From an uncultured Gemmatimonadaceae bacterium (GTDB lineage Bacteria; Gemmatimonadota; Gemmatimonadetes; Gemmatimonadales; GWC2-71-9), in NCBI GenBank assembly GCA_964598655.1, contig CAZRCT010000002.1:67146-131145 (forward strand): a stretch of DNA of 64,000 bases. Direction: 5' to 3'. A program made the translations under genes and the position numbers. Below are positions 35,723 to 59,030 of the stretch, in pieces. Every line of letters starts with the position of its first letter. The stretch's first letter is position 1. The notes beneath the pieces were generated by a model, which did no database searches, had not been told where the DNA came from, and saw only the letters and a list, made by a program, of their open reading frames with translations.

Positions 35723-37519
35723 ATGACCGCACCCCTGACCCCGACCGAGCGCGCGGCCCCCGGGCTGGCCGTCGCCGGCATCCTTGGGGGCGTGGCGTTC
35801 TTCCTCGTGGTGGCCAAGGGCGCGGGGACGGCGCCCTTCGGGGCCGCGCTGCCGGCGGCCCTGGCCCTGCTCGCCGTCGGTGGCGCCCTGGTGACGCGCG
35901 AGCTCCGCCGCCCCGCGCCGGCGCGGGCGCCGGAGTGGCCGCTGGTGCTGGTGGTGGCGCTGGCCACCGGCCTGGCGCTCTCCACGCTCTGGGGCCTCTC
36001 GTTCTACCTGCGCTTCCCGGCCGACTTCCTGGGCTTCTGGGAAGGCGACTACCTGAATGACCTCCTCCAGTTCCACAAGGGCGTGCCGCTCTACGGCGAC
36101 GTGCTCGACAACATCGACTCGGTGTACACGCCGGGGGCGCAGCTGCTCACCTACGGGATCGCGCGGCTCTTCGGCGTGGAGTTTTCCGTGGTGCCGCTCC
36201 GGCTGATCCAGTTCTCCTACGTGCTGGTGGCGGCCGCCGTGGCCACGAGCACCGCCGACCACCTGGCGCGCCGCTTCCTGGCGCCGGGCGAGTACGCGGC
36301 CCGGCCGCTCTGGCTCGCCGCCTGGTTCCCGCTGCTGGTGCTGGTGGGGGTGGAGCCGCGCTTCAACCTCAACGTGCACACGCTGCACCCCGACAGCTTC
36401 ACGCTGCTCCTCTCGGCCTGCGGCTTCTGGCTGCTCGCGCGGCACCTGCTGCGGCCCGGCCTCGGCGTCACCGTCGGGATGGCGCTCCTGCCGGCGGTGG
36501 GCTTCTGGTCCAAGCAGAGCCTGGTGATCTGGCTGGTGCTCTTCGGCGGGTACCTGGTGGTGAGCGGGCGACGGGCCCGGGAAATCGTGACCTTCAGCGT
36601 GCTGGGCGCGCTCTTCCTGGCGCTGAGCCTCTGGCTGCTCTTCCGCGTCGGGGGCCCGCAGACCGGCTACTGGATCTTCGGCGTGCTCGGCGACAAGTCC
36701 GTGGGACTCGGCCGGAGCCTGCAGGCCTTCGTGCTGGCGGGCGGCTACGTCGGAATGCTCCTCCTGGCGCTCTGGGAGCTCGTGCTCCGCGACCGGAGCG
36801 TGCCGGCACTGCTGGCCTGGCTGGTGCCGGCGGGCCTGCTGCTCCTCGAGTGCTACACCACCGGCATCGGCTGGCAGAAGAATCACCTGGGGCCCGGCGT
36901 GCTCATGGCCGCCACCTTCGGCCTGGCGACGTTGCCGCGCCTGTGGCAGCGGCTGCTCGCCACGCCCGAGCCGCAGGTCCGGCTGGTGGGGCAGCTCGGG
37001 TTTGCGCTCGGGATCGGCCTCCTGCCGCCGGCGCTGGGCCTGGTGCGCGAGCCGGTCAACAAGGTGCCCGAGGAGGCGCTGGCGCAGGTGGCCGCCATCG
37101 AGGCCGAGTTCCGGGGGATGGACCCCCACAAGGTGCTGCTCGATCGTGGCAGCTGGGTGTACCTGCCTGACACCACGCTGCAGAAGGACCGCGCCTCGGC
37201 GGTGCAGCTCCATCTGGGCGCCAACTCGCCCCGGATGGACCTCGACGCCATCCAGGGCACCCTCGCGCGGATCCGCGCCGAGACGTACGACAAGTTGCTG
37301 ATCCACACCTTCCCGAAGGGCAACCCCTACGACTGGCACTCGCGCGGCTCGGGGATCCCGGAGGCCATCGACTCGCACTACGTGGCGGTGCGGGTGATCC
37401 CGGGCGCCACCGAGCTCGACGAGTGGTGGCCCAAGCGGCTGCTCACGCCGGTGACGGTGTACGTGGCGCGCTCGCGCCTGCCGGCCGGGGCCACCGGTCC
37501 TGCACCGGTGGCGCCATGA
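35723..37519 (+). CDS. Polytopic membrane protein, GT-C-like (DUF2029/GT87-like polyprenol-phosphate-sugar-dependent glycosyltransferase candidate)
   Basis: About 10 or more TM segments. The first-loop pattern FWEGDYLNDLLQFHKGVPLYGD...SVYTPGAQLL resembles the GT87/PimE-type motif. There is a soluble C-terminal domain. Confidence 0.55.
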   Translation: MTAPLTPTERAAPGLAVAGILGGVAFFLVVAKGAGTAPFGAALPAALALLAVGGALVTRELRRPAPARAPEWPLVLVVALATGLALSTLWGLSFYLRFPADFLGFWEGDYLNDLLQFHKGVPLYGDVLDNIDSVYTPGAQLLTYGIARLFGVEFSVVPLRLIQFSYVLVAAAVATSTADHLARRFLAPGEYAARPLWLAAWFPLLVLVGVEPRFNLNVHTLHPDSFTLLLSACGFWLLARHLLRPGLGVTVGMALLPAVGFWSKQSLVIWLVLFGGYLVVSGRRAREIVTFSVLGALFLALSLWLLFRVGGPQTGYWIFGVLGDKSVGLGRSLQAFVLAGGYVGMLLLALWELVLRDRSVPALLAWLVPAGLLLLECYTTGIGWQKNHLGPGVLMAATFGLATLPRLWQRLLATPEPQVRLVGQLGFALGIGLLPPALGLVREPVNKVPEEALAQVAAIEAEFRGMDPHKVLLDRGSWVYLPDTTLQKDRASAVQLHLGANSPRMDLDAIQGTLARIRAETYDKLLIHTFPKGNPYDWHSRGSGIPEAIDSHYVAVRVIPGATELDEWWPKRLLTPVTVYVARSRLPAGATGPAPVAP

Positions 37520-39243
37520 GCCGCGGCCCCGCCCCGCTCAAGGACCTCCTCACCAGCGCCACCTGGGCGGCCGTGCTGTTCGGGCTGCTGGAGGGGGCGC
37601 TCGACATCGTGCTGCGGGGGTACCCGGTCCTGCAGGCCGCCCACAAGCTCGGGCCGGCCGCGCTCTGGATCACACCGCTCGGGAACCTGCTCATCCTGCT
37701 GCCGGTGGCCGTGGTGCTGGCGCTGCTGGCCCGGTCGTGGCCCGCGGCGGGCACCGCCCCCGCCGCGTGGGGCGTCTTCGGGGCGCTCGGCGCCATGGCC
37801 GTGCTCCGCGCGCCCGAGGTGCTGCATCCGGTCACGGTGGCGCTGCTCGGGCTCGGGGTCGGCACCATGGTCTCGCGGGCGGTGCGGGCGCAGGGCGCGG
37901 GGTTCGTCCCCATGCTCCGGCGACGCCTGCTCGTGCTGCCGGCGCTGCTGCTCCTGGCCCTGGGCGGCACGCAGCTGGAACAGCGCCTGACGGAACAGCG
38001 CCGGGTCGCCGCGCTCCCCGCGGCCCCCGCCGGCCGGCCGGACGTCCTCATCCTGATCCTCGACACCGTCCGGCGCGACCGCTTCACCGGCGCCCGCTCG
38101 CTCACGCCCACCCTCGACAGCCTGGCCATGAGCGGCACCGACTTCGCCAACGCGTGGGCGCCGTCGTCGTGGTCACTGCCGTCGCACGCGTCGATCCTGA
38201 CGGGGCGCCCCATCACGGTGCACGGCGCCAACTGGCCGGGGCTCCGGCTCGGGGACAGCATCCCGAGCGTCGCCGAGGCGTTCCGGGATGCGGGGTACGC
38301 GACGGGCGCCTTCTCCAGCAACCACGCGTGGGTCACGCCGGAGTACCTTGGCCGCGGCTTCACGCGCTTCCGGGTGTACGAGCAGCTCGACCTGTGGGAG
38401 CGGACCAGCGCCGGGCGCATCGGCTCGCGGGTGCTCGCGCTCTTCGGCTGGCGGCCGGGACAGCCGGTGGTGCCGGCCACCCGGACCATCCGGCACTACC
38501 TCGACTTCGTCGATGCCCACCCGGGGCGGCCGACGTTCGGCTACATCTGCTTCATGGACGTGAACCGGGCCTTCTACAACCAGCTGCACGGCAAGAAGGC
38601 GTGGGAGCCGAAGCACAGCATGGCCTCGGCCATCGCGGCGTACGACGCCGCCCTCGCCCGCCTCGACGGCGACGTGGCCCAGCTCCTCGACGCCCTGCGC
38701 CGGCGGGGCCGCTTGGCCAACACCGTGATCGTGGTGGCCTCCGATCACGGCGAGTCCTTCGGCCCTGACGACGCGTCCGACCACCTGCCGCGCGGCCACG
38801 GCACCAGCCTGTATCCCGAGCAGGTGCGGGTCCCGTTCTTCGTGACCGGGCCCGGCGTCCCGGCGGGCCCCATCATTCCCGCCGCCACCTCCCTGGTGGA
38901 CGTTCCCGGCCTGGTCCTCGGTCTCGCCGGCCTCCCCGATGCGCGGTTCGCCCCGGGGCGCGCGCTCGCCGCGGTGCGTGCCCCCGCGCAGGCGGACAGT
39001 GTCGGGGAGGTCTTCACCGCGCTCGACTACGACAAGTGGAGCGCCCGCAGCGCCATCCAGGGCACCACCCAGTACATCGCGACGCACGCCCCCGCGCCGG
39101 GGGGCGAGGAGCTCTTCGACCTGTCCGCCGACTCCACGGCGCAGACGAGCCTGCCGGCCGCCGACCCGCGCTGGGGGCCCCTCAAGGCCCTGCTGCAGCA
39201 GTTCGACCCGGCCAGCCCCGCCCCCCGTGCTCCAAGCCGCTAG
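37516..39243 (+). CDS. Membrane-anchored alkaline-phosphatase-superfamily ('sulfatase-fold') protein, paralog D (Ser at the nucleophile position)
   Basis: The ATG at 37516 overlaps the upstream stop (ATGA). TM module, then DVLILILDTVR...APSSWSLPSHASILTGR...AFSSNHAW...ASDHGESFG. Confidence 0.8.
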   Translation: MSRGPAPLKDLLTSATWAAVLFGLLEGALDIVLRGYPVLQAAHKLGPAALWITPLGNLLILLPVAVVLALLARSWPAAGTAPAAWGVFGALGAMAVLRAPEVLHPVTVALLGLGVGTMVSRAVRAQGAGFVPMLRRRLLVLPALLLLALGGTQLEQRLTEQRRVAALPAAPAGRPDVLILILDTVRRDRFTGARSLTPTLDSLAMSGTDFANAWAPSSWSLPSHASILTGRPITVHGANWPGLRLGDSIPSVAEAFRDAGYATGAFSSNHAWVTPEYLGRGFTRFRVYEQLDLWERTSAGRIGSRVLALFGWRPGQPVVPATRTIRHYLDFVDAHPGRPTFGYICFMDVNRAFYNQLHGKKAWEPKHSMASAIAAYDAALARLDGDVAQLLDALRRRGRLANTVIVVASDHGESFGPDDASDHLPRGHGTSLYPEQVRVPFFVTGPGVPAGPIIPAATSLVDVPGLVLGLAGLPDARFAPGRALAAVRAPAQADSVGEVFTALDYDKWSARSAIQGTTQYIATHAPAPGGEELFDLSADSTAQTSLPAADPRWGPLKALLQQFDPASPAPRAPSR

Positions 39244-41332
39244 CCCGGGGGCGCTGCCCCCGCTGGCCACCCCTAACACGGCGGTGGTGGCACCGGTCTT
39301 CTGGGTGGCGCTCGCCATCGCCGGGATCGGCGCCCTGCTCCTGCACCGGGGCGATGGCGCGCGCACGGCGCGCTGGCTCGCACTGCTCGCGGCGGGCACC
39401 GCCGCGATGCTGCAGCTCACCGCGGCGGGCCCGCTGATCCGCTACCAGCACTTCCTGCCGCTCGCCGGGGGCTGGACCACCACCCAGCTGGCCGCCCTCA
39501 CGGTGCTCGGCCTGCAGGCCGCCCTGGTGCTCAGTGCTGTGGTGCGCCGGGGCGGCGGATTGCTGGGCTGGGTGCGGGCACGGTGGTCGGGCGGCAAGGT
39601 GGCGGTGCTGGGGCTGGCCCTGGTGGGGATGTCCGCCACGCTGAGCGCATCGCCGCGGGCCTATGGGCAGGAGCTGCTGCTGGCGGGGCTGGCGCAGCTG
39701 CTGCAGCTCATCACGCTCGGCATGGCGCTCGAGGCGCTGCCGGCGCGTTGGGCGGCGCGCGCGGCCGCCTGGTTCGACGGGGCCGAGGCGGGGCGGGATC
39801 CCGTCCCGCTCCTCATGGCCGCGCTCAGCGTGGGGCTGTCGGCGCTCCTCGCCGTGCTGGTGTACGAGCGGCATCCCCACATCCCCGACGAGGCCGCGTA
39901 CCTGCTGCAGGCGCGGACCTTCGCGCGCGGGGCGCTCACGCTGCCCACGCCGCCGGTGCTGCCCGCGTTCGACGTGGACATCACCCTCAACGACCACGGC
40001 CGCTGGTTCTCCGCCTTCCCGCCCGGCTGGCCGGCCATCCTCGCGCTCGGGGCGCTGGTGCGCGCCGAGTGGCTGGTGAACCCGCTGCTCGGCGGCCTCA
40101 ACGTGCTGCTGGCCTACGCCGTGACCCGGCGGCTCTACGACCGCCGCACGGCGCGCGTGGCTGCGCTGCTGCTGGCCGCCTCGCCCTGGCACCTGTTCCT
40201 GGCCATGAGCTTCATGAGCCAGACGGTGACCCTCACGGTGGGCCTCCTCGCCGCGCTGGGGGTGGTCCGCTGGCGGCAGGGCGACTCGCCGGCGTGGCTG
40301 GTGCTGGCGGGCGCGGCGGCGGGCTGGGCCGGCCTCACGCGCCCGCTCGACGGCGTCCTCGTGGCCGGCGCCACCGGCCTGTGGCTCCTCCTGCCCGGCG
40401 ACGGGGTGAACGCCGCCCGCGCGCGCCTCACCGGCGCGGTCGCCTACGGCACCGGCATGGGGCTGACGGGCGCGCTGACGCTGCTGTACAACCGCGCCCT
40501 CACCGGCTCGCCGCTCAAGTTCCCCGTGATGCTCTGGTCCGACCGGGTGTACGGCCCGGGGAAGAATGCGCTCGGCTTCGGCCCGGATCGCGGCTTCGGC
40601 TGGACCTCGCTCGATCCCTTTCCGGGTCACGGCTGGAAGGACGTGCTGGTCAACGCCAACCTCAACACCTTCCAGGTCAACACGGAACTGCTGGGCTGGG
40701 GCACGGGGTCGCTGCTCCTCGTGGTGGCGTACTGCCTCCTCCGCCGCATCGAGCGCCGGGACCTGGGACTCCTGCTGGCCACCTTCCTGGTGGTGGGGCT
40801 CCACGCATTCTACTGGTTCAGCGGCGGGCCGGACTTCGGCGCGCGCTACTGGTTCCTGGTGATCTACCCGCTCGTGGCCCTCGCCGCGCGCGCGGTGCTG
40901 GCCTTCGAGGCGGGCTCCTCCCTGCCCGGGCGACCCCTCGCGGCCGTCCTGCTGCTGTCGGTGGTGACCCTGCTGGTCTTCCTGCCCTGGCGCGCCCTCG
41001 ACAAGTACTGGCACTATCGCCGCATGCGGCCCGGCGTGGCCGCCCTCGCCGATTCGGCCGGCTTTGGCCGGAGCCTGGTGCTGGTGCAGGGGATCCGGTT
41101 CCCCGATTACGCCGGCGCGGCCACCTTCAACCCGCTCGACCTCCAGGCCAACCAGCCCCTGTACGCCTTCGACGCCGACTCGACGCTCCGCGCTGGAGTG
41201 CTGGCCGCGTATCCCGAGCGCCCGGTGTGGGTCATCGAGGGCCCGAGCCGCACCGGCGGACCGTACCGCATCGTGGCAGGACCCTTCCCGCCGGGCGCGC
41301 CCGTGACCACGCCGATCCCGCGGCGCCCGTGA
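39227..41332 (+). CDS. GT-C glycosyltransferase (ArnT/PMT-like, GT39/GT83-type) with an extra N-terminal polytopic extension
   Basis: ERHPHIPDEAAYLLQARTFARG is the DE/loop-1 motif of ArnT/PMT-type enzymes. There are many TM helices. The start is uncertain (GTG at 39227, or at 39284/39287). Confidence 0.65.
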   Translation: MLQAASPGALPPLATPNTAVVAPVFWVALAIAGIGALLLHRGDGARTARWLALLAAGTAAMLQLTAAGPLIRYQHFLPLAGGWTTTQLAALTVLGLQAALVLSAVVRRGGGLLGWVRARWSGGKVAVLGLALVGMSATLSASPRAYGQELLLAGLAQLLQLITLGMALEALPARWAARAAAWFDGAEAGRDPVPLLMAALSVGLSALLAVLVYERHPHIPDEAAYLLQARTFARGALTLPTPPVLPAFDVDITLNDHGRWFSAFPPGWPAILALGALVRAEWLVNPLLGGLNVLLAYAVTRRLYDRRTARVAALLLAASPWHLFLAMSFMSQTVTLTVGLLAALGVVRWRQGDSPAWLVLAGAAAGWAGLTRPLDGVLVAGATGLWLLLPGDGVNAARARLTGAVAYGTGMGLTGALTLLYNRALTGSPLKFPVMLWSDRVYGPGKNALGFGPDRGFGWTSLDPFPGHGWKDVLVNANLNTFQVNTELLGWGTGSLLLVVAYCLLRRIERRDLGLLLATFLVVGLHAFYWFSGGPDFGARYWFLVIYPLVALAARAVLAFEAGSSLPGRPLAAVLLLSVVTLLVFLPWRALDKYWHYRRMRPGVAALADSAGFGRSLVLVQGIRFPDYAGAATFNPLDLQANQPLYAFDADSTLRAGVLAAYPERPVWVIEGPSRTGGPYRIVAGPFPPGAPVTTPIPRRP

Positions 41333-42321
41333 ACCTCGCCGCCCTCGCGCCCTACCGGGGCCTCCGCGTGCTGGTGCTCGGTGGGGATGGATTCATCGGC
41401 CGGTGGGTGGCACGCCTGCTGACGGCGGCCGGCGCCGAGGTGCACGTGAGCGTGCTCGACCGCGCCGCCGCCGAGCCCGTGCTGGCCGCCTGGGAGGTGC
41501 AGGCCACCGTCCAGGTGGCGGACCTCACCGACCCCGCCGCCCTCGCCATGCTGCTCGGCGCGGTGGCGCCCGCCCTGGTGATCAACGCGGTGGGCTATGG
41601 CGTGGCCCCGGCGGAGAAGCGCGCCGAGAACCTGGCGCTGGCCGAGGCCATCAATCGCGACCTGCCCCGCCGGCTCGTGGAGGTGCTGGCCGAGTGCCCC
41701 GCCCCGGCGGGGTGGCATGGCCGCCGCCTGGTGCACGTGGGCTCCATCCTGGAGTACGGCAACATCGGCGGTCACCTCCCGGAGTCGGCCGCCGCGGCGC
41801 CCTTCGGCGTCTACGGCGTGACCAAGCACGCCGGCACCGAGGCGGTCCGCCGGGAGGCGGCGGCCCGTGGGGTTCCCGCCCTCACCGCCCGGATCTGTCA
41901 GGTGTACGGCCCGGGGGAGCACCCGGGCCGGCTGCTCCCGCTGTTGCTTGCCGCGAAGCAGACCGGTACCCTCCCGGTGCTGTCCCGGGGGACCCAGCGG
42001 AAGGACTTCACCTATGTGGAAGAGACCGCCGAGGGGCTGCTCCGGCTAGGGCTGACGGCGGGGGTCCCCGGGGAGATCGTGAACCTCGCCAGCGGCCGGC
42101 TGACCTCGGTGGCCAAGTTCATCCGGGAGGCGGCACAGCTCTTGCAACTTCCGCCAGCGATCGTAAGACTCGAAAACCCGTTGCCGGACAATGAGTTAGC
42201 ACACGACGAGGTGTGCAACGACCGGCTCCGGGAGCTCACCGCATGGGTGCCAGGGCTGGACATCCGCGGTGGACTCCGCCGTACGCTCGCCTTTGGCGCG
42301 CGCCCCCTTAGCCGCGGGTAG
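41329..42321 (+). CDS. NAD-dependent epimerase/dehydratase family protein (candidate NDP-4-keto-sugar reductase/epimerase)
   Basis: The GTG start overlaps the upstream stop. It carries VLVLGGDGFIGRWVARLL (Rossmann) and YGVTKHAG (YxxxK). Confidence 0.75.
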   Translation: MNLAALAPYRGLRVLVLGGDGFIGRWVARLLTAAGAEVHVSVLDRAAAEPVLAAWEVQATVQVADLTDPAALAMLLGAVAPALVINAVGYGVAPAEKRAENLALAEAINRDLPRRLVEVLAECPAPAGWHGRRLVHVGSILEYGNIGGHLPESAAAAPFGVYGVTKHAGTEAVRREAAARGVPALTARICQVYGPGEHPGRLLPLLLAAKQTGTLPVLSRGTQRKDFTYVEETAEGLLRLGLTAGVPGEIVNLASGRLTSVAKFIREAAQLLQLPPAIVRLENPLPDNELAHDEVCNDRLRELTAWVPGLDIRGGLRRTLAFGARPLSRG

Positions 42322-42324
42322 ACC

Positions 42325-43107: not shown

Positions 43108-43112
43108 GGATC

Positions 43113-44351: not shown

Positions 44352-44358
44352 GCGACGC

Positions 44359-48335: not shown

Positions 48336-48555
48336 GTCGCGCCCAGGCAACACCCGGGGGTGCACGACCGGCAGGTTTGACTGGTCTGGGGCCGGTCCCA
48401 GTGGCTGTCTGCCGAGGCTAACCCCTTGTCTCGGCATGATTTCAGCAAAAAATGCTGCTTCAGGTATCCTTGGCTCGCCCGGAACCGGGCGGAACGGCCC
48501 TGGAGGCCCTCCCGGGGCGACCTGATCCATTTCATGGCAAGGCCTAGACCGGCTC

Positions 48556-48570
48556 TGGAACGGGGATTGC
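48556..48570 (+). promoter_or_regulatory. Candidate -24/-12 (sigma-54) promoter heading the 48.6-54.9 kb operon
   Basis: TGGAAC-GGGGA-TTGC, with GG and TTGC at consensus spacing, 42 nt upstream of the ATG at 48612. Confidence 0.45.
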
Positions 48571-48611
48571 CCAACACCGGGCGTCCCTGACGGCCCCCGA
48601 ACCCCGAGTCC

Positions 48612-50129: not shown

Positions 50130-50133
50130 CGGA

Positions 50134-51983: not shown

Positions 51984-53394
51984 GCCGCGCGTCGTCATCC
52001 TGGGAGGCGGCCCCGCCGGTGTCGGCGCCGCGTGGAAGCTCCGCACCACGGGCAAGGCGCAGGTGACGCTGCTCGAGCGGCAGGAGGTGGTCGGCGGCAA
52101 CGCCGGCAGCTTCACGCTCGAGGGGCTTCGCGTGGACTACGGCAGCCACCGGCTCCATCCCGCCACCGATCCCGCGATCCTGGCCGACCTCCAGCGGCTC
52201 CTCGGCGGCGACCTCCTCGACCGCCCGCGCCACGGCCGCATCGGGCTGCTGGGCCGCTGGATCCACTTCCCGCTCAAGCCGGTGGACCTGATGCTCCGCA
52301 TGCCGCCGGGCTTTGCGCTCGGCGCCACGAAGGATGCGGCCACCAAGAAGTTCCGCGTCATCGAGCAGGACACCTTCGCGGCGGTGCTCCGGAAGAACCT
52401 GGGCCCCACCATCTGCGAGCACTTCTACTTTCCCTACGCCCGGAAGATCTGGGGCCGGGCCCCGGAGACGCTCTCCGGCATCCAGGCGCGCCGCCGCGTC
52501 TCGGCGGGCTCGTTCGGGAAGCTGGTGAAGAAGGTCCTGTCGGCGGTCCCGGGCCTGAAGCCGCCGGGCGCCGGGCGCTTCTACTACCCGCGGCAGGGCT
52601 TCGGCCAGATCACCGAGGCGCTCGCGGGTGCGGCCGTGCAGGCCGGCGCGGACCTCCGGCTCGGCGCCGAGGTCACGGGCCTGGCGCCGCCGGCCGGCGC
52701 GGATGCGCCGTGGATCGTGGAGGGTCGGCGCGGGGGCGAACCGTTCCGCCTCGAGGCCGACTACGTGTGGAGCACCATCCCGATCCCGGTCCTCGCCCGC
52801 CTGGTGCGGGGCGCGCTCACCGAGCCGGTGATGCGCGCCACGGGCGCCATCCACTACCGCGCCATGCTGCTGGTGTACCTGGTGCTCGACCTGGACCAGT
52901 TCACCGAGTACGACGCGCACTACCTCCCCGCGGCCGACGTGTCCATCACGCGCCTCTCGGAGCCCAAGAACTACTCGGCCAGCACCGAGCCGCGCGGCCG
53001 GACCATCCTCTGCGCCGAACTCCCCTGTGACGCCGACGACGCCACCTGGCAGAAGAGCGACGCCGAGCTGGGCGCGCAGGTGACCGCGGACCTGGCGCGC
53101 GCCGGCATCCCCCTCCCGCGCCCCGCCATCGGCGTGCACGTGCGGCGCCTGCGCCAGGCCTATCCCATCTACCTCACCGGCTACGAGAAGCCCTTCGGGG
53201 TGCTGGACCAGTGGGCGAGCGGCCTGCCGCGGCTCGTCAACTACGGCCGCCAGGGGCTCTTTGCGCACGACAACACCCACCACGCCCTGGCCATGGCCTA
53301 CGCCGCGGTGGACGCCCTCGAGCCGGCCGGCTGGAACGCCGGCAAGTGGGCGGCGAGCCGCCGGGTCTTCGACACCTTCGTGGTGGAGGACTGA
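51976..53394 (+). CDS. FAD-dependent oxidoreductase (amine-oxidase / protoporphyrinogen-oxidase-like fold)
   Basis: VVILGGGPAGVGAAWKL...LERQEVVGGN is a dinucleotide-binding motif. The protein is 472 aa. Confidence 0.7.
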   Translation: MPEPRVVILGGGPAGVGAAWKLRTTGKAQVTLLERQEVVGGNAGSFTLEGLRVDYGSHRLHPATDPAILADLQRLLGGDLLDRPRHGRIGLLGRWIHFPLKPVDLMLRMPPGFALGATKDAATKKFRVIEQDTFAAVLRKNLGPTICEHFYFPYARKIWGRAPETLSGIQARRRVSAGSFGKLVKKVLSAVPGLKPPGAGRFYYPRQGFGQITEALAGAAVQAGADLRLGAEVTGLAPPAGADAPWIVEGRRGGEPFRLEADYVWSTIPIPVLARLVRGALTEPVMRATGAIHYRAMLLVYLVLDLDQFTEYDAHYLPAADVSITRLSEPKNYSASTEPRGRTILCAELPCDADDATWQKSDAELGAQVTADLARAGIPLPRPAIGVHVRRLRQAYPIYLTGYEKPFGVLDQWASGLPRLVNYGRQGLFAHDNTHHALAMAYAAVDALEPAGWNAGKWAASRRVFDTFVVED

Positions 53395-53399
53395 CCCCC

Positions 53400-54923
53400 A
53401 TGCCACGCTCCGGGATCGGGTTGCGCATCTTCCTGACGTGCTGGATGGTGTACTGCCTGCACTACGCCACCGACTTCATGCGGGAGCATTTCCTGGTGGC
53501 GTCGATCGTGGAGCGGCACACCTTCACGCTCGATCCCTACGCCGGCCGCCACGCCGACCTCTTCCAGTTCCAGGGCCACACCTACCACGGTGCCAACCCC
53601 GGCATCTCGATGCTCGGCGCGGTCCCCTACTTCGTGCTGCACCCGCTGGTGGAGCGCGTGGTCCAGGGCGAGCTGGCGAAGCGCCGCGCCACCGGCGACA
53701 CCGGCGCCGTCTACAACGACCCGCGCCCCGCGCGCCAGGCTTTCTATGCCTGGGCCCGCGCCAACGGCTACGACATCCGCTTCGGGCTCATCGGGCTCAT
53801 CACCATGGTCTTCTGCATGGCGCCGCTCGCGGCGGCCGGCGGGGTGGTGATGTTCAAGACCCTCCGCGGCGCCGGGCTCAGCGACAAGCTCGCCGTCGGC
53901 GGCACGCTCCTCTACGCCTTCGGCACGCCGCTCTTCTTCCGGAGCGCGTACCTGAACCAGAACCTGGCCGTCACCCATTTCATCTTTGCGGCCTTCGCGG
54001 TGCTCTGGAACCCGGGCGACTGGACCGGCCTCACGGAGAAGAAGCGCGAGCTCCTCGCCGGCTTCCTCGGCGGCATGGCGCTGCTCTGCGACTACACCGG
54101 CGCCGTGCTGCTGGCCGGCATCGGCCTCTACGCGCTGGTGCGGGCGTGGCCGGCCGGCGGGGCGCGCGGGGCCATCCAGGCCGGCGTGCGCATCACCCTC
54201 GGCGCGCTCGGGCCCATGGTGGTGCTCTGGTGGTACCAGTACGAGTGCTTCGGCAACGCCTTCATGCCGCCGCAGAAGTGGATGCCGCCCACGCAGGCGC
54301 TCTCCGACAAGGGCTGGAAGGGCGTCATGGGTCCCGACCCGGCCCTCTTCAAGATGCTGCTCTTCGACCCGCGCTTCGGGCTCTTCGTCACCGGGCCGCT
54401 GCTCATGCTCGGGCTGCTGGCGCCGCTGGCGCGGCGCCGGAGCACCTTCCAGCCCGCCCCGCGCGAGCTGTGGGCGTTGCTCCTCTTCCCGGCCCTGGTG
54501 CTGCTCTTCTTCTCGAGCCTGAGCTACACCCAGCTCCAGTACATCCACGGCATCCGTTACGTGGTGCCGGCGATCCCGTTCCTCCTCGTGGCCACGCTGG
54601 TGGTGCTGCTGGCGCTGCCGCGCTGGATCAGCCTCTCCCTCGGCATCCTCTCACTGGCGCTCGGCTGGGGACTGGCCATGGGGCGGCTCGAAGAGCAGCA
54701 CCGGAGCATCCTGGTGGGGCTCAAGTCGGTGTACCTGGGCGGCCTCCGGCTGCCGGCCCTGACCACCCTGGGCCGGATGTCCGCCCAGTATGCCCCGGAG
54801 CTGGGCGGGATGATCTCGCCGCTCCCTGCGTTCCTGGTGGCCGGGGCCTTCCTGTGGCTCGTCTGGCGGGTAGAATGGCCGTCCCGCCGCCTCGGGGATG
54901 ACCCGGCTCCCGGCGGTACCTGA
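53400..54923 (+). CDS. Polytopic membrane protein (candidate GT-C-like transferase or polymerase)
   Basis: ATG at 53400. About 12 TM helices, with an N-terminal loop containing ATDFMREHF...HTYHGANPGISML. The family is not securely recognised. Confidence 0.55.
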   Translation: MPRSGIGLRIFLTCWMVYCLHYATDFMREHFLVASIVERHTFTLDPYAGRHADLFQFQGHTYHGANPGISMLGAVPYFVLHPLVERVVQGELAKRRATGDTGAVYNDPRPARQAFYAWARANGYDIRFGLIGLITMVFCMAPLAAAGGVVMFKTLRGAGLSDKLAVGGTLLYAFGTPLFFRSAYLNQNLAVTHFIFAAFAVLWNPGDWTGLTEKKRELLAGFLGGMALLCDYTGAVLLAGIGLYALVRAWPAGGARGAIQAGVRITLGALGPMVVLWWYQYECFGNAFMPPQKWMPPTQALSDKGWKGVMGPDPALFKMLLFDPRFGLFVTGPLLMLGLLAPLARRRSTFQPAPRELWALLLFPALVLLFFSSLSYTQLQYIHGIRYVVPAIPFLLVATLVVLLALPRWISLSLGILSLALGWGLAMGRLEEQHRSILVGLKSVYLGGLRLPALTTLGRMSAQYAPELGGMISPLPAFLVAGAFLWLVWRVEWPSRRLGDDPAPGGT

Positions 54924-54934
54924 CCCCCCGGGGG

Positions 54935-54950
54935 TGGCACCAAGCTTGCA
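54935..54950 (+). promoter_or_regulatory. Exact-consensus sigma-54 promoter (TGGCAC-N5-TTGCA)
   Basis: tggcac caagc ttgca, read directly. It lies in the intergenic region 12 nt after the upstream stop, ~170 nt upstream of the ATG at 55121. The downstream leader is locally AT-richer. Confidence 0.6.
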
Positions 54951-55120
54951 CGTTTGCGGGGTCGTTTGTTTTCGCTAACCCATTGCTGTTCAGTACGTTA
55001 CGAGACAGGTGCCGGCTCCAGTGAGCGCCGCGTCACCTCCTCCGGGGCAAGGCTGTTGGCAGGGTGCGACACTCGGTGCCGCGTCCGCCCGGCTTCCCCC
55101 ACCCCAACCCGAGGTACCGC

Positions 55121-55918
55121 ATGTCGGCGACTCCCGGTTCTCCCCGCCCTACCCCGCTCCGGGTGGACGTGGTCATCCCGGTGCTCAACGAGGCCCACGT
55201 CCTCGAGAAGAGCGTCACCGAGGTGCGCGCCTTCCTGGCGGCCAACACCGACTGGGCCTGGCGGGTGGTGGTGGTGGACAACGGCTCCACCGACGGCACC
55301 GACCGTGTGGCGAAGATGCTGGTGGAGCGGCACGGCGACGTGCAGTTCCTGCAGCTGCCGCAGCGCGGCCGCGGGCGGGCGCTCCGGCATGCGTGGACGC
55401 AGAGCGACGCCGACATCATGAGCTACACCGACGTGGACCTCTCCACCGAGCTCGCGGCACTCCCCCGGCTGGTCAACGGCGTGGCCGGCGGGCAGTACGA
55501 CCTCGGCACCGGCTCGCGCCTCCTGCCCGCCTCGCAGACCACGCGGTCCTTCAAGCGTGAGTTCATCTCCCGCTGCTACAACCTGATGATCAAGGCCGTG
55601 CTCTGGACCAGCTTCAGCGACGCCCAGTGCGGCTTCAAGGTGGTGAGCCGGCGCGTGGTGCAGGAGATCGTGCCCAACATCAAGGACCAGGCGTGGTTCT
55701 TCGACACCGAGCTCCTGGTGCTGGCCGAGAAGCACGGCTACAAGATCATGGACATCCCGGTCCGCTGGATCGAGGACGACGACAGCCGCGTGAAGATCGT
55801 CAAGACCGCCTGGGACGACATCAAGGGCGTGGCGCGGCTCCGCTGGACGCTCTGGTTCGGCACCTTCCAGCCGGCGTCGGCGTCGCTGCCGGTCTCGAGC
55901 CGCGCGCCGGGCGCCTGA
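55121..55918 (+). CDS. Family-2 glycosyltransferase, DPM1/Alg5-like polyprenyl-phosphate sugar synthase type
   Basis: The ATG at 55121 is preceded by GAGG. It carries VDVVIPVLNEAH...VVVDNGSTDGTD...RGRGRAL...YTDVDLS...DTELLVLAEKHGY. An alternative GTG lies at 55064. Confidence 0.8.
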   Translation: MSATPGSPRPTPLRVDVVIPVLNEAHVLEKSVTEVRAFLAANTDWAWRVVVVDNGSTDGTDRVAKMLVERHGDVQFLQLPQRGRGRALRHAWTQSDADIMSYTDVDLSTELAALPRLVNGVAGGQYDLGTGSRLLPASQTTRSFKREFISRCYNLMIKAVLWTSFSDAQCGFKVVSRRVVQEIVPNIKDQAWFFDTELLVLAEKHGYKIMDIPVRWIEDDDSRVKIVKTAWDDIKGVARLRWTLWFGTFQPASASLPVSSRAPGA

Positions 55919-55952
55919 GGCGTCCCATGCCGCGCGTCCGCAGGATGCCCAC

Positions 55953-56864
55953 ATGGACATGACAGGGCCCATCGCCCTGACCGGAGCGGGCGGCTTCGTG
56001 GGCCGTCGGCTCCTCGCCCAGCTCTCTCCCGACCGCTATCCCGACGTCCGCTGTCTCATCCGCGAGCCCGCCCGGCTCGCGGCGTCGCTTCCGGCGCCGG
56101 GGTGGCGCGCGGTGGCGGGGACCCTCGCCGACGAGCAGGCGCTCGCCACGCTGGTGGCCGGCGCCCATACCGTGGTGCACCTGGCCGCCACCACCGGGAA
56201 GGCGCGGCCGGCGGAGTACACCGCCACCAACGTGGAGGGCACCCGGCGCCTCGTGGCCGCCGCCCGCGCGGCGGGCGTCCGGCGCATCATCGCGCTGTCG
56301 AGCGTGGCGGCGGGCTTCGCCGACCAGCGGCACTATCCCTACGCCGCCAGCAAGCGCGCCATGGAGCAGGTGCTCCGGGAGTGCGGCATCCCCTCGCTGA
56401 TCCTTCGCCCCACCATGATCCTGGGCGAGGGCAGTCCCGTCCTGACGGGCCTCCGGACCCTGGCCTGCGCTCCCGTCGGCATCTGCTTCGGCCCCGGCAC
56501 CCTGCCGGTGCAACCCGTCCACGTGGACGACGTGGCCGAAGTGCTGGCCGGCGCGCCGGCAGTGCCTGACGCGACCGGCCTCGTGGGCCTCGGCGGTCCC
56601 GAGGTGCTCGCCTTTCTCGACCTGCTCCGCGCCATCCGCACCCGGGGGCGCGGGCGACCAGGTCCCTTCCTGCACGTTCCGCTCGGTCCCGTGCGCGCCG
56701 CGCTGGCGCTGGCCGAGCCGCTGCTCTTTCCTGTCCTGCCGCTCACCGCGGGCCAGCTCGCATCGTTCGCGAATCCCGGCACCGTACCGGCCGAACCCTG
56801 GCCGAGCGGGCTCCGTCGCCCGACCCGGCCGCTGGCGGCAATGCTCTCCTCGCTCCATGCCTGA
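55953..56864 (+). CDS. NAD(P)-dependent SDR (extended / NmrA-like epimerase-reductase)
   Basis: IALTGAGGFVGRRLL is a Rossmann motif and YAASKRAME is YxxxK. Confidence 0.7.
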   Translation: MDMTGPIALTGAGGFVGRRLLAQLSPDRYPDVRCLIREPARLAASLPAPGWRAVAGTLADEQALATLVAGAHTVVHLAATTGKARPAEYTATNVEGTRRLVAAARAAGVRRIIALSSVAAGFADQRHYPYAASKRAMEQVLRECGIPSLILRPTMILGEGSPVLTGLRTLACAPVGICFGPGTLPVQPVHVDDVAEVLAGAPAVPDATGLVGLGGPEVLAFLDLLRAIRTRGRGRPGPFLHVPLGPVRAALALAEPLLFPVLPLTAGQLASFANPGTVPAEPWPSGLRRPTRPLAAMLSSLHA

Positions 56865-57306
56865 CTCCCCAGCCGCCCTCGCGCGGGAAAGCGCCGTCTT
56901 CGCGCGCTACCTCGCCGGCGTCACCACGACGCCCTACGTCACCCAGGCGTACGCCCGCTGCCACCCCACCATGCCCGCCCTGGCCAAGGGCGTGCCCGAC
57001 CGCTTCGACCGCTTCCTCGTGCGCGTGGCCACCGCCGGGGGCCCGTTCCCCCGCATCGCCGACGCCTACGCGCGCCGGGTGCGGCCCACGGGCCTGCTGC
57101 GGCAGAAGCTGGTGCTCATGTGCGCCGTGCTCGAGTCGAGCCCGCCCGCGCACGACTACCTCAACACCGCCGCCGCCGGCTCCCTCGCGGGGACGGTGGT
57201 CCGCATCGGCCTGGCGGGCCTGACGAGTGTCCTCGCCACCCTGGCCGGCGTCGTGCTGCTCGGCCCGGCGCACCTGGCGCTCCGCGGGAAGGGGGCGGCC
57301 GCATGA
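56857..57306 (+). CDS. Hypothetical small protein with a C-terminal hydrophobic segment
   Basis: 149-aa ORF overlapping both neighbouring genes. The segment SLAGTVVRIGLAGLTSVLATLAGVVLLG looks like a TM helix. Confidence 0.45.
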   Translation: MPDSPAALARESAVFARYLAGVTTTPYVTQAYARCHPTMPALAKGVPDRFDRFLVRVATAGGPFPRIADAYARRVRPTGLLRQKLVLMCAVLESSPPAHDYLNTAAAGSLAGTVVRIGLAGLTSVLATLAGVVLLGPAHLALRGKGAAA

Positions 57307-58913
57307 CCCACGTCGTGGTGGTGGGCTCCGGGGCCTCGGGGGTGCACTTCGCGCTCACCGCGCTGGAGCGCGGGCACGACGTGACGATGGTGGACGTAGG
57401 GATCGAGCGGCCGGCCCCGGTGGAGCGGGGCGCGAGCATCGAAGGAATGAAGGACCGGCTGGCCGATCCCGCCGCCTGGTTCCTGGGCGAGGACGGCCGC
57501 AACGTGGTGTACCCCGCCACCAAGGCCAGCTACTACGGCTTCCCGCCCAGCAAGGAATACGTCTTCCGCACGCCGGGCGCGTTCCGCTCCCGGGCGGAGC
57601 AGATGGTGCCGGTGTTCTCGTTTGCGCAGGGTGGCCTGGCCGAGGCGTGGACCGGCGGCGCCTACGCCTTCGGGCCCACGGACCTGGCCGAGTTTCCCTT
57701 CGGCTACGACGACATCGCGCCGTTCTACGCGCAGGTGGCGGAGCGGATCGGCGTCGGCGCCGAGCCGGACGATTTGGCGCAGTTCATTCCCTGCGACGCA
57801 CCGTACCTCCCGCCGCTCCCCTTCGACCCGCATTCGGCGCACCTCGTGGCGCGCTACCAGCGGGTGCGCCCGGCGCTGCAGCAGGACCTCGGCTTCTTCC
57901 TCGGCCGCTCCCGCGTGGCCACGCTGAGCCGCGGGCACCGCGGCCGCCAGGGCTGCGGGCAGCTCGGCCGCTGCTTCTGGGGCTGCCCCAACGAGTCGCT
58001 CTACACCCCGTCGTACACCCTGCGCGAGCTGCGGCAACATCCGCGCTTCACCTACATGCCCGGCCTCCTGGCCACGCACCTCGAGCAGGATGCCGGCGCC
58101 CGGATCACCGCGGTGGTGGCCCGACCGCTGGCCGGGGGCGACCCGGTGCGCGTCCCGGGCGAGGCCTTCGCCCTCGCGGCGGGCGCCCTGCCGTCCTCGG
58201 CGCTGGTGCTGGCCACCCACCACGCCCACAGCGGCGAGGTGGCGAGCCTCGAGGGGCTGATGGACAACCGGCAGGTGCACGTGCCCTTCCTCACCCCAGC
58301 CATGATGGGGAAGGAAGTGCGCACGGCGAGCTACCAGTTCCACCTCCTGGCCTTCGGCCTCACGGAGCGGAACCCGGCCGAGTACGTGCACGCGCAGATC
58401 ACCACCCTCAAGGCGGCGGCGGTGCACCCCATCGTGCAGGGCCTGCCGCTCGACCTGGCCGGCAGCCTCGGCATCTTCCGGGCCCTCCGCACCGGGCTCG
58501 CGCTGGCCAACGTCAACTTCCACGACCGGCGCCGGACCGAGAGCCGAGTGACCATCGTGCCGCGCACCGACGGGCCGGCGGAACTGCGCATCCACTACGT
58601 GGACGACCCGCAGGAAGAGGCACTCGTGGCGCGCACGCTGGGCCGGGTCAAGAAGGCCCTGGGCCGGCTGGGCTGCGTGGTCCCGCCCGGCATGACGCGG
58701 GTGCTCCCGAAGGGCACCAGCGTGCACTACTCCGGCACGCTGCCCATGACCCGCACCGACGCGGGCCGCTTCAGCTGCACCCCCGAGGGCCGGCTCCGGG
58801 GCTGGGCCAACCTCTACGTGGCCGACGGGGCGGGCTTCGCGTTCCTCCCGGCCAAGAACCTGACCTTCACGCTGATGGCCAACGCCTCACGGATCGCGAC
58901 GGCGCTGGCGTGA
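57303..58913 (+). CDS. GMC-family FAD-dependent oxidoreductase
   Basis: The ATG at 57303 overlaps the upstream stop. N-terminal VVVVGSGASGVHFA is the FAD-binding motif, and the C-terminal LYVADGAGFAFLPAKNLTFTLMANASRIA matches GMC_oxred_C. Confidence 0.7.
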   Translation: MTHVVVVGSGASGVHFALTALERGHDVTMVDVGIERPAPVERGASIEGMKDRLADPAAWFLGEDGRNVVYPATKASYYGFPPSKEYVFRTPGAFRSRAEQMVPVFSFAQGGLAEAWTGGAYAFGPTDLAEFPFGYDDIAPFYAQVAERIGVGAEPDDLAQFIPCDAPYLPPLPFDPHSAHLVARYQRVRPALQQDLGFFLGRSRVATLSRGHRGRQGCGQLGRCFWGCPNESLYTPSYTLRELRQHPRFTYMPGLLATHLEQDAGARITAVVARPLAGGDPVRVPGEAFALAAGALPSSALVLATHHAHSGEVASLEGLMDNRQVHVPFLTPAMMGKEVRTASYQFHLLAFGLTERNPAEYVHAQITTLKAAAVHPIVQGLPLDLAGSLGIFRALRTGLALANVNFHDRRRTESRVTIVPRTDGPAELRIHYVDDPQEEALVARTLGRVKKALGRLGCVVPPGMTRVLPKGTSVHYSGTLPMTRTDAGRFSCTPEGRLRGWANLYVADGAGFAFLPAKNLTFTLMANASRIATALA

Positions 58914-59030
58914 TGGAGATCACACCCCGTGCGTCCGGGCCCGCGAGGATCGTCACTCCCGTGGCCGGGGTCGCTCCATAGATTTAGGGGTCCACTGCTG
59001 CCCGTGCCTGTCCCGTGCTGGAGGAGTCCG

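Follow-up and report, generated by a model that had tools for sequence, protein, structure and literature searches.

We analysed a stretch of 64,000 nucleotides from an uncultured Gemmatimonadaceae bacterium (GenBank assembly GCA_964598655.1, contig CAZRCT010000002.1, forward strand, positions 67,146 to 131,145), hereafter called the window. Our focus was the region at 35723–58913, in which four polytopic membrane proteins with the predicted fold of GT-C glycosyltransferases (GTC1 to GTC4) lie among three family 2 glycosyltransferases (GT2a to GT2c) and a series of sugar-tailoring enzymes. The GC content of the window is ~72%, with a third-codon-position GC of at least 0.9 in real genes. Genes were called from the third-position GC and then scanned against Pfam and NCBIfam, which yielded 49 genes, among them, at identical coordinates, all those named in an initial annotation made from the sequence alone. 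The nearest public relative is a contig of a Gemmatimonadetes metagenome-assembled genome (JADJPD010000010.1; 92–94% protein identity for the two genes tested). The region is organized in two tight plus-strand runs, 35723–46831 and 48612–62308, in which stop and start codons overlap by 4–8 bp, and which are divided by a lone minus-strand amidohydrolase. We refer to three units within these runs as cassettes A (39227–46121), B (48612–53394), and C (53400–58913); GTC1 lies upstream of them. All of these genes are on the plus strand.

The GT-C-like proteins are GTC1 (35723–37519; 598 amino acids, with a C-terminal soluble domain of ~150 residues), GTC2 (39227–41332; ~700 amino acids, cassette A), GTC3 (48612–50129; 505 amino acids, cassette B), and GTC4 (53400–54923; 507 amino acids, the anchor gene of cassette C). 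Hydropathy and the AlphaFold helices placed all four within the range of 8–13 transmembrane helices. GTC2 and GTC3 scored above the gathering threshold of Pfam PMT_2 (PF13231; 42.6 and 39.7 bits, respectively, vs 26.1). GTC1 and GTC4 matched no Pfam family, PMT_2 included, and no NCBIfam family, and their family profiles found no match among Protein Data Bank (PDB) sequences, even at E-values up to 1. Weak sub-threshold Pfam matches occurred in one of 13 GTC1-family members (PMT_2) and two of 40 GTC4-family members (PMT), and the stray matches in the two families pointed only to the GT-C clan (PMT_2, PMT, and DUF2079). Both families are populated: a word-indexed search returned 12 GTC1 homologues and a full hidden Markov model scan of 1.84 billion representatives 515, while GTC4 has more than 350 homologues, mostly in Gemmatimonadota, from 220 GTDB species genomes; carriers of the GTC4 family include metagenome-assembled genomes of Gemmatimonas, such as chromosome OZ257156.1.

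The AlphaFold models of GTC1 (pLDDT 83, pTM 0.87) and GTC4 (pLDDT 88, pTM 0.90) were compared with the PDB using Foldseek. The top 31 matches of GTC1 were all GT-C enzymes, led by the oligosaccharyltransferase subunit STT3 (1e-5) and including PglB, AglB, Pmt4, ALG9/12, AftA, and PimE. The top 30 matches of GTC4 were likewise all GT-C, with Pmt4 first and ArnT second, followed by AglB, ALG9, and EmbC among others. These top ~30 matches had a probability of 1.0 and belonged to the GT-C_A class. The acidic motifs that the initial annotation had quoted from the first loops are all present and conserved in homologues. In the homologue alignments, GTC1 has invariant D101, E107, D113, H222/D224, and K264-Q265-S266; GTC2 carries H-x-P-D-E-x-x-Y, with D in 18/18, E in 17/18, and Y in 18/18 homologues; and the W-x-D-E of GTC3 is kept in 37/37. 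The motif of GTC4, which had been called weaker, is an invariant A-T-D-F-x-R-E-H directly after the first transmembrane helix, with D25 and E29 invariant. By the positive-inside rule, the only guide to topology used here, the acidic loops of GTC1 to GTC4 would face the periplasm.

A fold that matches only GT-C enzymes, together with the conserved acidic first-loop motifs, argues for the GT-C identity of GTC1 and GTC4. By sequence and structural model, the proposal that all four polytopic proteins are GT-C-type membrane glycosyltransferases thus stands, with PMT_2 membership for two and Foldseek matches for the other two; their use of the lipid-linked donors is predicted. Other assignments were considered. 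The alternative that they belong to non-glycosyltransferase families such as transporters did not hold, as Foldseek matched GTC1 and GTC4 to the major facilitator superfamily (MFS) or other transporters only at a probability below 0.15 and a TM-score of ~0.1. Some GTC4 homologues in JGI carry the label 'MFS family permease'. No Wzy-, WaaL-, or SEDS-type structures appeared among the Foldseek matches. GTC1 is also not a canonical oligosaccharyltransferase, because the W-W-D-Y-G motif is absent: the sequence has no W-W-D-[YWF]-G, and its sole W-W lies in D-E-W-W-P-K, which is not kept in distant homologues.

The three GT2 enzymes belong to Pfam PF00535: GT2a (42325–43107; 260 amino acids, E 3e-19, cassette A), GT2b (50134–51027; 297 amino acids, E 1e-27, cassette B), and GT2c (55121–55918; 265 amino acids, DPM1-like, E 4e-22, cassette C). 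GT2b has two C-terminal hydrophobic helices (residues ~225–257 and ~269–287), and GT2a and GT2c have none. Against PDB sequences, GT2b matched the Pyrococcus (archaeal) dolichol-phosphate-mannose synthase (DPMS; 2e-16), ArnC (2.5e-16), and GtrB (3e-7) over nearly its full length. GT2c matched DPMS (6e-8) and ArnC (7e-8) over residues 13–217, and GT2a matched ArnC (8e-8, ending at residue 152) and DPMS (1e-6, residues 13–234). The catalytic domain is therefore covered whole by the ArnC and DPMS alignments in GT2b and GT2c, and by the DPMS alignment only in GT2a. The top NCBIfam models were the Dol-P-hexose transferase, AglJ, PpgS, and ArnC for GT2b, and the Dol-P-hexose transferase, AglJ, ArnC, and PgfS for GT2c, all sub-cut-off; every one of these models describes makers of lipid-monophosphate sugars. 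GT2b contains D-A-D and G-E-S-K. GT2c contains D-A-D and D-V-D, with D-D-D-S-R-V-K replacing the G-E-S-K region, and in GT2a the D-x-D is replaced by C-A-D and the G-E-S-K by G-A-S-N. Polyprenyl-phosphate GT2s without transmembrane helices exist, for example human DPM1 and PpgS. These results bear out the view of the three as enzymes of the polyprenyl-phosphate-sugar synthase type, with ArnC, DPMS, GtrB, AglJ, and PpgS as the nearest characterized relatives, and of GT2b as GtrB-like with two C-terminal helices, to which G-E-S-K can be added. Because all scores lie far below the curated cut-offs, we filed GT2a to GT2c by sequence as DPM1/GtrB/ArnC-like enzymes outside every named orthologous group, GT2a being the least secure.

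Cassette A surrounds GT2a with genes that resemble a nucleotide-sugar pathway. Epi1 (41329–42321), which overlaps the GTC2 stop codon by 4 bp, is an NAD-dependent short-chain dehydrogenase/reductase (SDR) of the RmlD/4,6-dehydratase type (Pfam Epimerase, E 2e-34); its NCBIfam matches to dTDP-glucose dehydratase and RmlD all fall below cut-off, and it is likely a 4-ketoreductase or epimerase. CMT (43113–44351; Pfam Methyltransf_13, _23, and _14) matched D-mycarose 3-C-methyltransferase (4e-100) and TcaB9 (6e-82) over its full length, and has the TylC3/TcaB9 architecture of a zinc finger, an S-adenosylmethionine-dependent methyltransferase domain, and a C-terminal domain; it is assigned as an NDP-hexose 3-C-methyltransferase. 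CytT (44359–45129) is a glucose-1-phosphate cytidylyltransferase (TIGR02623 equivalog, 363.6 bits vs 300). Dehy (45126–46121; Pfam GDP_Man_Dehyd and Epimerase) is an NDP-glucose 4,6-dehydratase whose best match is the CDP-glucose type (TIGR02622, 206 bits, below the cut-off of 278).

From the assignments of CytT, Dehy, CMT, and Epi1, we predict that cassette A produces a CDP-activated 6-deoxy-3-C-methylhexose, the nucleotide being CDP because CytT passes its equivalog cut-off. GT2a is then a candidate polyprenyl-phosphate 6-deoxy-3-C-methylhexose synthase, which would attach this sugar to the lipid carrier for use by GTC2 and perhaps also by GTC1. The TylC3 and TcaB9 pathways similarly combine a 4,6-dehydratase, a 3-C-methyltransferase, and a ketoreductase to give a 3-C-methyl-6-deoxyhexose. 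Their known substrates, however, are dTDP-sugars destined for antibiotics via GT1 enzymes, whereas cassette A is wired to a DPM1-like GT2 and a GT-C. CDP-linked 3-C-methyl-6-deoxyhexoses are represented by CDP-vinelose of Azotobacter and virenose of Coxiella.

In cassette B, GTC3 and GT2b are followed by a UPF0104/MprF-type membrane protein (51024–51983) and a flavoprotein, FAD (51976–53394). The presence of a flippase-like UPF0104 protein after the GtrB-like GT2 was upheld, as the protein passed both PF03706 (E 5e-32; 112 bits vs 33.4) and, barely, TIGR00374 'flippase-like domain' (43.5 vs 43.2), and it is a candidate for the cassette B flippase on the basis of this family membership. In archaeal AglD, a GT2 domain is fused to a UPF0104 domain (PMC5898192), and MprF-type domains have been proposed as general lipid translocators (bioRxiv 10.1101/2022.03.11.483950). 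The FAD family profile matched eukaryote-type UDP-galactopyranose mutases (UGMs) in the PDB at 3e-21 to 1e-18 over residues 3–350, the next match being PPOX at 8e-10, so that UGMs are favoured by 11 orders of magnitude. FAD lacks a signal peptide and conserves the His-loop G-S-H, P-Y-x-x-K-x-W, and an Arg-rich flap R-R-R-V. Matches to HpnE and CrtI, together with the SQS_PSY gene at 6848, had raised the idea that FAD is an amine oxidase or a desaturase acting on carotenoids or squalene; this was rejected, since the matches cover only the N-terminal dinucleotide fold. A hopanoid HpnI/HpnL-type reading of GT2b and the UPF0104 protein was also discarded: HpnI-, HpnJ-, and HpnK-type partners are absent, and the matches to HpnB and HpnA are weak and partial. 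The UGM-like character of FAD predicts that it supplies a furanose donor, which GT2b would load onto the lipid, the UPF0104 protein would flip, and GTC3 would transfer. Cassette B may thus deliver a hexofuranose, for example galactofuranose, via a lipid monophosphate rather than through cytoplasmic Leloir galactofuranosyltransferases.

Cassette C comprises GTC4, GT2c, and three further genes. SDR (55953–56864) is an NAD(P)-binding extended SDR (Pfam NAD_binding_10 and Epimerase). P149 (56857–57306) is a membrane protein of 149 amino acids and no described family, without a Pfam or NCBIfam match. It has one C-terminal hydrophobic helix containing G-P-x-H-L and, in the homologue alignment, a conserved amphipathic segment, A-D-x-Y-A-R-x-x-R-P...L-R-x-K-L-x-L-x-x-A-I-L-E; it overlaps the genes on either side at its start and stop codons, and it always stands between SDR and GMC. 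GMC (57303–58913; Pfam GMC_oxred_C) is a flavoprotein sugar oxidoreductase of the GMC family, with PDB matches to the α subunit of FAD-dependent glucose dehydrogenase (6e-10), pyranose oxidase (1e-9), 6'''-hydroxyparomomycin C oxidase, and the large subunit of fructose dehydrogenase; these solved relatives all oxidize sugar hydroxyls. FAD, GMC, and SDR begin directly with dinucleotide-binding folds and have no signal peptides, and we therefore place them in the cytoplasm.

These components suggest the following sequence of events for cassette C. GT2c would make a polyprenyl-phosphate hexose, which GMC would oxidize and SDR reduce at the membrane, an epimerization analogous to that of DprE1/DprE2. 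P149 may anchor these soluble enzymes at the membrane, where it would hold GMC and SDR, and GTC4 would use the remodelled product. Cassette C may thus be a non-homologous functional analogue of DprE1/DprE2 for hexoses that remodels the sugar on the lipid itself. The GMC/SDR pair is an analogue at most and not a member of the DprE1/DprE2 group: the second enzyme is an SDR, as in that group, and the flavoprotein is of the GMC type instead of VAO/FAD_binding_4. A fusion of GTC4 and GT2c was seen in one 779-residue protein (P0040) on a JGI metagenome contig of 2674 bp. Given the shortness of the contig, it lends weak support to the coupling of the two.

To place the cassettes in context, we compared loci from species representatives, 80 of them surrounding GTC4 homologues and 18 surrounding GTC1 homologues, with all window proteins mapped. 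Counts for cassette C refer to the 55 loci in which the downstream flank of GTC4 spans at least 5.5 kb, and those for cassettes A and B, the exosortase, the phosphoglycosyl transferase, and the SBBP proteins to 35 well-flanked GTC4 loci, the exosortase and phosphoglycosyl transferase being sought within 10 kb. Cassettes A, B, and C recurred as blocks that move and invert relative to each other. Downstream of GTC4, we found SDR in 43/55 loci, GMC in 43/55, any GT2 in 40/55, and all three together in 37/55; a GT2c homologue was present in 37 and P149 in 36 of the 55. Cassette C also occurs in Acidobacteriota and Gammaproteobacteria. Cassette B (GTC3-GT2b-UPF0104-FAD) was complete in 20/35 loci. 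The core of cassette A (GT2a-CMT-CytT, then Dehy) was present in 12/35, usually with Epi1 immediately upstream; GT2a always adjoins CMT-CytT-Dehy in related loci, and GTC2 adjoins Epi1 and/or cassette A genes in seven (L001, L036, L066, L080, L090, L096, and L098).

The GTC1 family behaves differently according to distance. Close homologues have sulfatase-family genes, GTC2, and Epi1 as neighbours (L001, L003, and L090), and the pair formed by GTC1 and the adjacent sulfatase-family gene is kept in L001, L003, L090, L093, and L094. In eight loci, distant homologues (~30–35% identity) have an SDR and a GT2 of their own downstream, and CMT-CytT-Dehy often precedes these homologues. In all four GT-C families, pairing with a GT2 is thus conserved. 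The initial annotation had described each GT2 operon as also encoding GT-C-like proteins and had proposed comparative genomics of this pairing, and the comparison found it strongly conserved in relatives. Two details need correction: GTC4 pairs with GT2c at 55121, not with the GT2 at 50134, and GTC1 has no GT2 of its own here. Nor is the region one system multiplied three times. GT2a to GT2c share only 25–32% mutual identity, and the four GT-Cs have no BLAST-detectable similarity to each other; these low or undetectable similarities exclude a recent triplication and mark the region as an array of distinct cassettes.

Based on these observations, we consider it fairly probable that 35.7–58.9 kb is a conserved array of three extracytoplasmic glycosylation cassettes of the three-component type plus one extra GT-C. 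From the observed family and fold assignments, conserved motifs, and synteny, we infer the lipid carrier, the sugar identities, the order of steps, the topology, and the acceptor. In each cassette, a DPM1/GtrB/ArnC-type GT2 at the cytoplasmic face would move a tailored sugar from its nucleotide donor to polyprenyl phosphate. The resulting lipid-monophosphate sugar would be flipped across the membrane, and on its periplasmic side a dedicated GT-C would pass the sugar on to an acceptor in the envelope.

Several observations weigh against this interpretation. None of the proteins of the array has a known enzyme activity, lipid intermediate, or glycan. Cassettes A and C contain no candidate flippase, with no GtrA/SMR, MATE, or Wzx-like protein, which is the main hole in the model. 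Every GT2 misses the NCBIfam cut-offs for ArnC, AglJ, PpgS, the Dol-P-hexose transferase, and PgfS by a wide margin (the best, GT2b, 100.7 bits vs 375). GT2a and GT2c lack transmembrane helices and have a degenerate G-E-S-K region, and GT2a also lacks a canonical D-x-D. The Foldseek TM-scores of GTC1 and GTC4 are modest (0.44–0.49), and the E-values of GTC4 reach only ~1e-3. FAD is sub-threshold for Pfam GLF and TIGR00031, whose matches lie at residues 288–354, and its C-terminal third is unmatched. GMC and SDR could act on a nucleotide sugar or a finished glycan instead of a lipid-linked sugar. Finally, the P0040 fusion is a single case and could be an assembly or read-through artefact.

The neighbouring genes bear on what the cassettes might serve. 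Upstream lies a polysaccharide/exosortase block (15774–35246). It begins with a UDP-GlcNAc 2-epimerase, a histidine kinase, a sigma-54 regulator, a Wzc-like co-polymerase/kinase, a response regulator, and a Wza-like exporter, continues with a Bac_transf phosphoglycosyl transferase (24497), an exosortase, EpsI, and a membrane sulfatase-family protein, and ends with a 390-residue GT2 and a GT4, both on the minus strand, and two more sulfatase-family proteins. The exosortase-linked part at 19616–35246, identified by Pfam and NCBIfam, is repeated in the same gene order in L003 and L090. The exosortase passes the generic 8TM_EpsH model (150.9 bits vs 105.6) and falls below the subtype cut-offs (XrtA, 152 vs 208; XrtD, 190 vs 400), and the window holds no PEP-CTERM substrate gene. 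Within 16862–23713, the Wzc-like gene is flanked by the histidine kinase and sigma-54 response regulator (minus strand) and by the response regulator with a degenerate GGDEF-like domain, regulators that we take to resemble PrsK/PrsR of PEP-CTERM systems. The 390-residue GT2 (28888–30060) has one N-terminal and two C-terminal transmembrane helices, partial PgaC/NodC-like coverage, and H-K-L-V-R-W where processive synthases have Q-x-x-R-W. Should it be processive, this could account for exopolysaccharide being made without Wzx or Wzy.

The attachment of the cassettes to an exosortase locus, as first proposed, is true only of a small Gemmatimonadales subclade. The whole island including the exosortase is kept in L003 and in the contigs behind L090 and L006 and behind L089 and L008, and the presence of GTC1, cassette A, and the sulfatase-type proteins follows that of the exosortase locus. 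Among the well-flanked loci, no exosortase lies within 10 kb of GTC4 (0/35 loci), and a phosphoglycosyl transferase does so in 1/35. The exosortase link is thus specific to the subclade rather than general.

These upstream genes raise the alternative of conventional repeat-unit assembly, in which the GT2s would be Leloir transferases acting on an undecaprenyl-diphosphate unit begun by the Bac_transf protein at 24497, and the polytopic proteins would replace the Wzy, ligase, or en-bloc transferase of the exosortase-linked exopolysaccharide. The Wzc-like co-polymerase, the Wza-like exporter, and the initiating phosphoglycosyl transferase are indeed present upstream, and Wzx and Wzy are not. The initial annotation had noted the lack of Wzx, Wzy, an O-antigen ligase, and an ABC exporter, and this extends to the whole window: 0/49 open reading frames (ORFs) match the Wzx/MOP, Wzy/O-antigen-ligase, or ABC-transporter families, and neither the gaps (six uncalled gaps of at least 150 bp, the largest of 665 bp) nor alternative frames hide a multi-helix or small GtrA-like ORF. 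Nor were such genes found in the 4.9 kb past its 3' end, which encode only CotH/NosD and TPR-like proteins, with no Wzx, Wzy, ligase, or ABC protein, although Wzx and Wzy may be encoded elsewhere in the genome. The best structural matches of GTC1 also fit conventional assembly, since STT3, PglB, and AglB transfer diphosphate-linked glycans en bloc, and so do the GT2 scores below all curated lipid-phosphate sugar synthase cut-offs. However, GTC1 lacks the W-W-D-Y-G motif, and an en-bloc route needs a Wzx- or PglK-type flippase, which is missing. Furthermore, the closest relatives of the GT2s are lipid-monophosphate sugar synthases; the four GT-Cs match the GT-C_A class (ArnT, PMT, STT3, and ALG) and none matches Wzy, WaaL, or SEDS; and dozens of genomes carry cassettes B and C with almost no phosphoglycosyl transferase, no co-polymerase, and no exosortase within 10 kb. 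We regard conventional assembly as very unlikely.

Between GTC1 and GTC2 lies Sulf4 (37423–39243, plus strand), a membrane-anchored protein of the alkaline-phosphatase/sulfatase superfamily (Pfam Sulfatase, E 1e-32). Its true start is probably near 37516; it has four to five N-terminal hydrophobic helices, and S-L-P-S-H replaces the C-x-P-x-R of sulfatases. It is one of four paralogues in the window (26962–28815, 31253–33328, 33294–35246, and 37423–39243), which are 32–43% identical and share an N-terminal transmembrane bundle, W-T/S-L-P/A-S-H for C-x-P-x-R, and L-D-T-V-R in the first strand. Judged from these features, they look like LtaS/EptA-type transferases rather than sulfatases, which fits the periplasmic transfer of a phospho-substituent. 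The sulfatase-superfamily proteins travel with the GTC1 family.

This resemblance suggests another possibility, that the GT-Cs are ArnT-like and, with the EptA/LtaS-like proteins, form an outer-membrane remodelling toolkit that decorates lipopolysaccharide (LPS) or lipid A-core and merely stands beside the exosortase genes. Each of the three GT2s has ArnC among its best matches, and ArnT ranks second among the structural matches of GTC4. The sulfatase proteins have the EptA/LtaS-like build (a transmembrane bundle, a periplasmic domain, and Thr or Ser in place of the formylglycine Cys) and weak matches to EptA and CptA. The spread of cassettes B and C across Gemmatimonadota, and into Acidobacteriota and Methylococcales, independently of exopolysaccharide genes also suits an LPS target. 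In contrast, the catalytic domains of the sulfatase-family proteins obtain higher scores with arylsulfatase and choline-sulfatase models than with EptA, and GTC1 and the sulfatase-type genes vary together with the exosortase locus. In addition, the window has no lipid A or core biosynthesis genes, and nothing is known of Gemmatimonadota LPS. On balance, LPS decoration appears rather unlikely.

Directly downstream of cassette C, at 58929–62308 (plus strand), are two SBBP β-propeller lipoproteins (Pfam SBBP; the first also Big_2) with the lipoboxes LAAC and GALAC, the first with a Gly- and Thr/Pro-rich linker after the lipobox. They are possible acceptors and evoke protein O-glycosylation. This would follow the same chemistry with envelope proteins, either the SBBP/Big_2 lipoproteins or PEP-CTERM proteins handled by the exosortase, as acceptors, as in the actinobacterial Ppm1/Pmt system. 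The PMT_2 membership of GTC2 and GTC3, Pmt4 as the top structural match of GTC4, the position of the two lipoproteins here and in close relatives, and the Thr/Pro-rich linker of SBBP1 are consistent with it. PMT_2 is nevertheless a broad family that includes ArnT-like lipid and glycan transferases, and the GT-Cs have no MIR or TPR domains, which are typical of protein O-mannosyltransferases. Moreover, SBBP genes accompany GTC4 in only 6/35 loci, following cassette C only in close relatives, and the missing PEP-CTERM substrate gene also speaks against this possibility. We therefore judge it unlikely that the cassettes serve protein O-glycosylation.

Returning to the array of extracytoplasmic cassettes, cassettes B and C are widespread where exopolysaccharide, exosortase, and SBBP genes are lacking. 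A conserved envelope glycoconjugate (LPS-like, another surface glycan, or envelope proteins) is therefore a more likely acceptor for them than the exopolysaccharide linked to the exosortase. The polysaccharide of the exosortase locus may be decorated by GTC1, cassette A, and the sulfatase-type proteins. A joint interpretation, in which cassette C remodels its sugar on the lipid, cassette B uses a lipid-linked hexofuranose, and GTC1 and GTC4 are two new GT-C families, GTC1 being of STT3-like overall build and standing beside Thr-nucleophile sulfatase-superfamily transferases in exosortase loci, is put forward tentatively, as possible rather than probable.

The cassettes share several traits with the GtrA/GtrB/Gtr(type) systems of Shigella and Salmonella and with ArnC/ArnEF/ArnT. 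In each case, a GT2 with a DPM1/GtrB/ArnC catalytic domain is gene-paired with a GT-C; the two-helix anchor and G-E-S-K of GT2b, the acidic first periplasmic loop of the GT-Cs, and the presumed polyprenyl-monophosphate donor are further likenesses. Unlike those systems, the region has no GtrA/SMR flippase, with an MprF-type UPF0104 protein in cassette B and none in A or C. In addition, two of the GT2s are unanchored, two of the GT-Cs fall outside all described sequence families, each cassette has its own sugar-tailoring enzymes, and the three cassettes are contiguous.

In three-component pentofuranose systems, auxiliary epimerases act on the undecaprenyl-phosphate-linked sugar, as does an SDR epimerase on undecaprenyl-phosphate ribofuranose in Citrobacter (PMC11127046). 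The authors of that 2024 study were aware of no further epimerases in systems for side-chain glycosylation, and galactofuranose or a mutase is not mentioned there. The Citrobacter youngae O1/O2 system (GT136) and the mycobacterial decaprenyl-phosphate-arabinose pathway with DprE1/DprE2 have in common a redox epimerization of the lipid-linked sugar before flipping and transfer by a GT-C (PMC11127046), and cassette C correspondingly places a flavoprotein oxidase and an SDR, both free of signal peptides, beside a lipid-sugar synthase and a GT-C. It differs in using a GT2 with an NDP-hexose instead of a UbiA-type phosphoribosyl transferase dependent on phosphoribosyl pyrophosphate, a GMC flavoprotein instead of the VAO-type DprE1, and P149 as an extra component, while the UGM-like mutase of cassette B would imply a hexofuranose.

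Two further systems are comparable. In the dolichol-phosphate-mannose branch of N-glycosylation in Haloferax volcanii (AglD/AglR/AglS), the GT2 synthase is tied to UPF0104, by fusion in AglD and by adjacency here, and the GT-C AglS uses the product; the present system is instead bacterial, with separate genes and an extra UGM-like enzyme. In actinobacteria, DPM1-like synthases without transmembrane helices feed several GT-Cs with PMT_2/PMT-like folds (Ppm1/Pmt, with PimE, MptA/B, Emb, and Aft), so that many GT-Cs serve one envelope. By comparison, the genes studied here are tightly clustered with their own donor pathways in diderm Gemmatimonadota, and the tailoring enzymes suggest sugars other than mannose or arabinose.

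The remaining genes of the window appear separate from the cassettes. The lone minus-strand gene between the two runs encodes a secreted amidohydrolase (46767–48335) and is preceded by a PepSY_TM protein (46118–46831, plus strand), both identified by Pfam. The pair is kept in the closest genome (L008/L089) and missing between Dehy and GTC3 in L005, L006, L024, and L031. Its absence from most other genomes holding cassettes A and B indicates that it is probably a lineage-specific insertion and not part of the system. The segment 232–15500 carries metabolism and repair genes unrelated to the cassettes. Within it, 3166–8648 encodes a UbiD-like decarboxylase, a UbiA prenyltransferase, a squalene/phytoene synthase-like protein (SQS_PSY gene at 6848), and an SDR, which form an isoprenoid or quinone-type cluster that also appears unrelated. 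The largest uncalled gap (in the area 5245–6163) is overlapped by a minus-strand ORF of 286 amino acids (5303–6163) with a third-position GC of 0.93, atypical first- and second-position values (0.55 and 0.50), and no Pfam match. This ORF also overlaps the 5' end of the UbiA ORF, and the gene boundaries are ambiguous there. At its 3' end (63366–63998, minus strand), the window ends inside a CotH/NosD/β-helix protein of 1072 amino acids (L087:1649–4867), after which comes a TPR-like single-pass protein of 388 amino acids.

The principle of combining a lipid-monophosphate sugar synthase, a flippase, and a GT-C is well known. New, or at least undescribed, are the GTC1 and GTC4 families; the GMC/SDR/P149 trio conserved with a GT2 and a GT-C; the combination of a UGM-like enzyme with a GtrB-like GT2, an MprF-type protein, and a GT-C; the link of a CDP-branched-sugar pathway to a DPM1-like GT2; and the contiguity of all cassettes. 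Our literature search returned nothing relevant on Gemmatimonadota together with exosortases and glycosyltransferases, or on a galactofuranose three-component system.

Gemmatimonadota are abundant soil bacteria whose envelope chemistry is, to our knowledge, essentially unknown. The locus predicts that their envelope carries a CDP-derived 3-C-methyl-6-deoxyhexose, a hexofuranose, and an epimerized hexose, all added outside the cytoplasm. It also provides two sequence-orphan GT-C families, GTC1 and GTC4, for CAZy-type classification, and cassette C is a candidate for a second, evolutionarily independent route to the redox remodelling of lipid-linked sugars. The cassettes are compact, each combining a lipid-sugar synthase and a GT-C with a pathway to the donor, and would suit glycoengineering as modules. 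Even if the biochemistry proves conventional, the analysis annotates ~20 genes now labelled 'hypothetical'.

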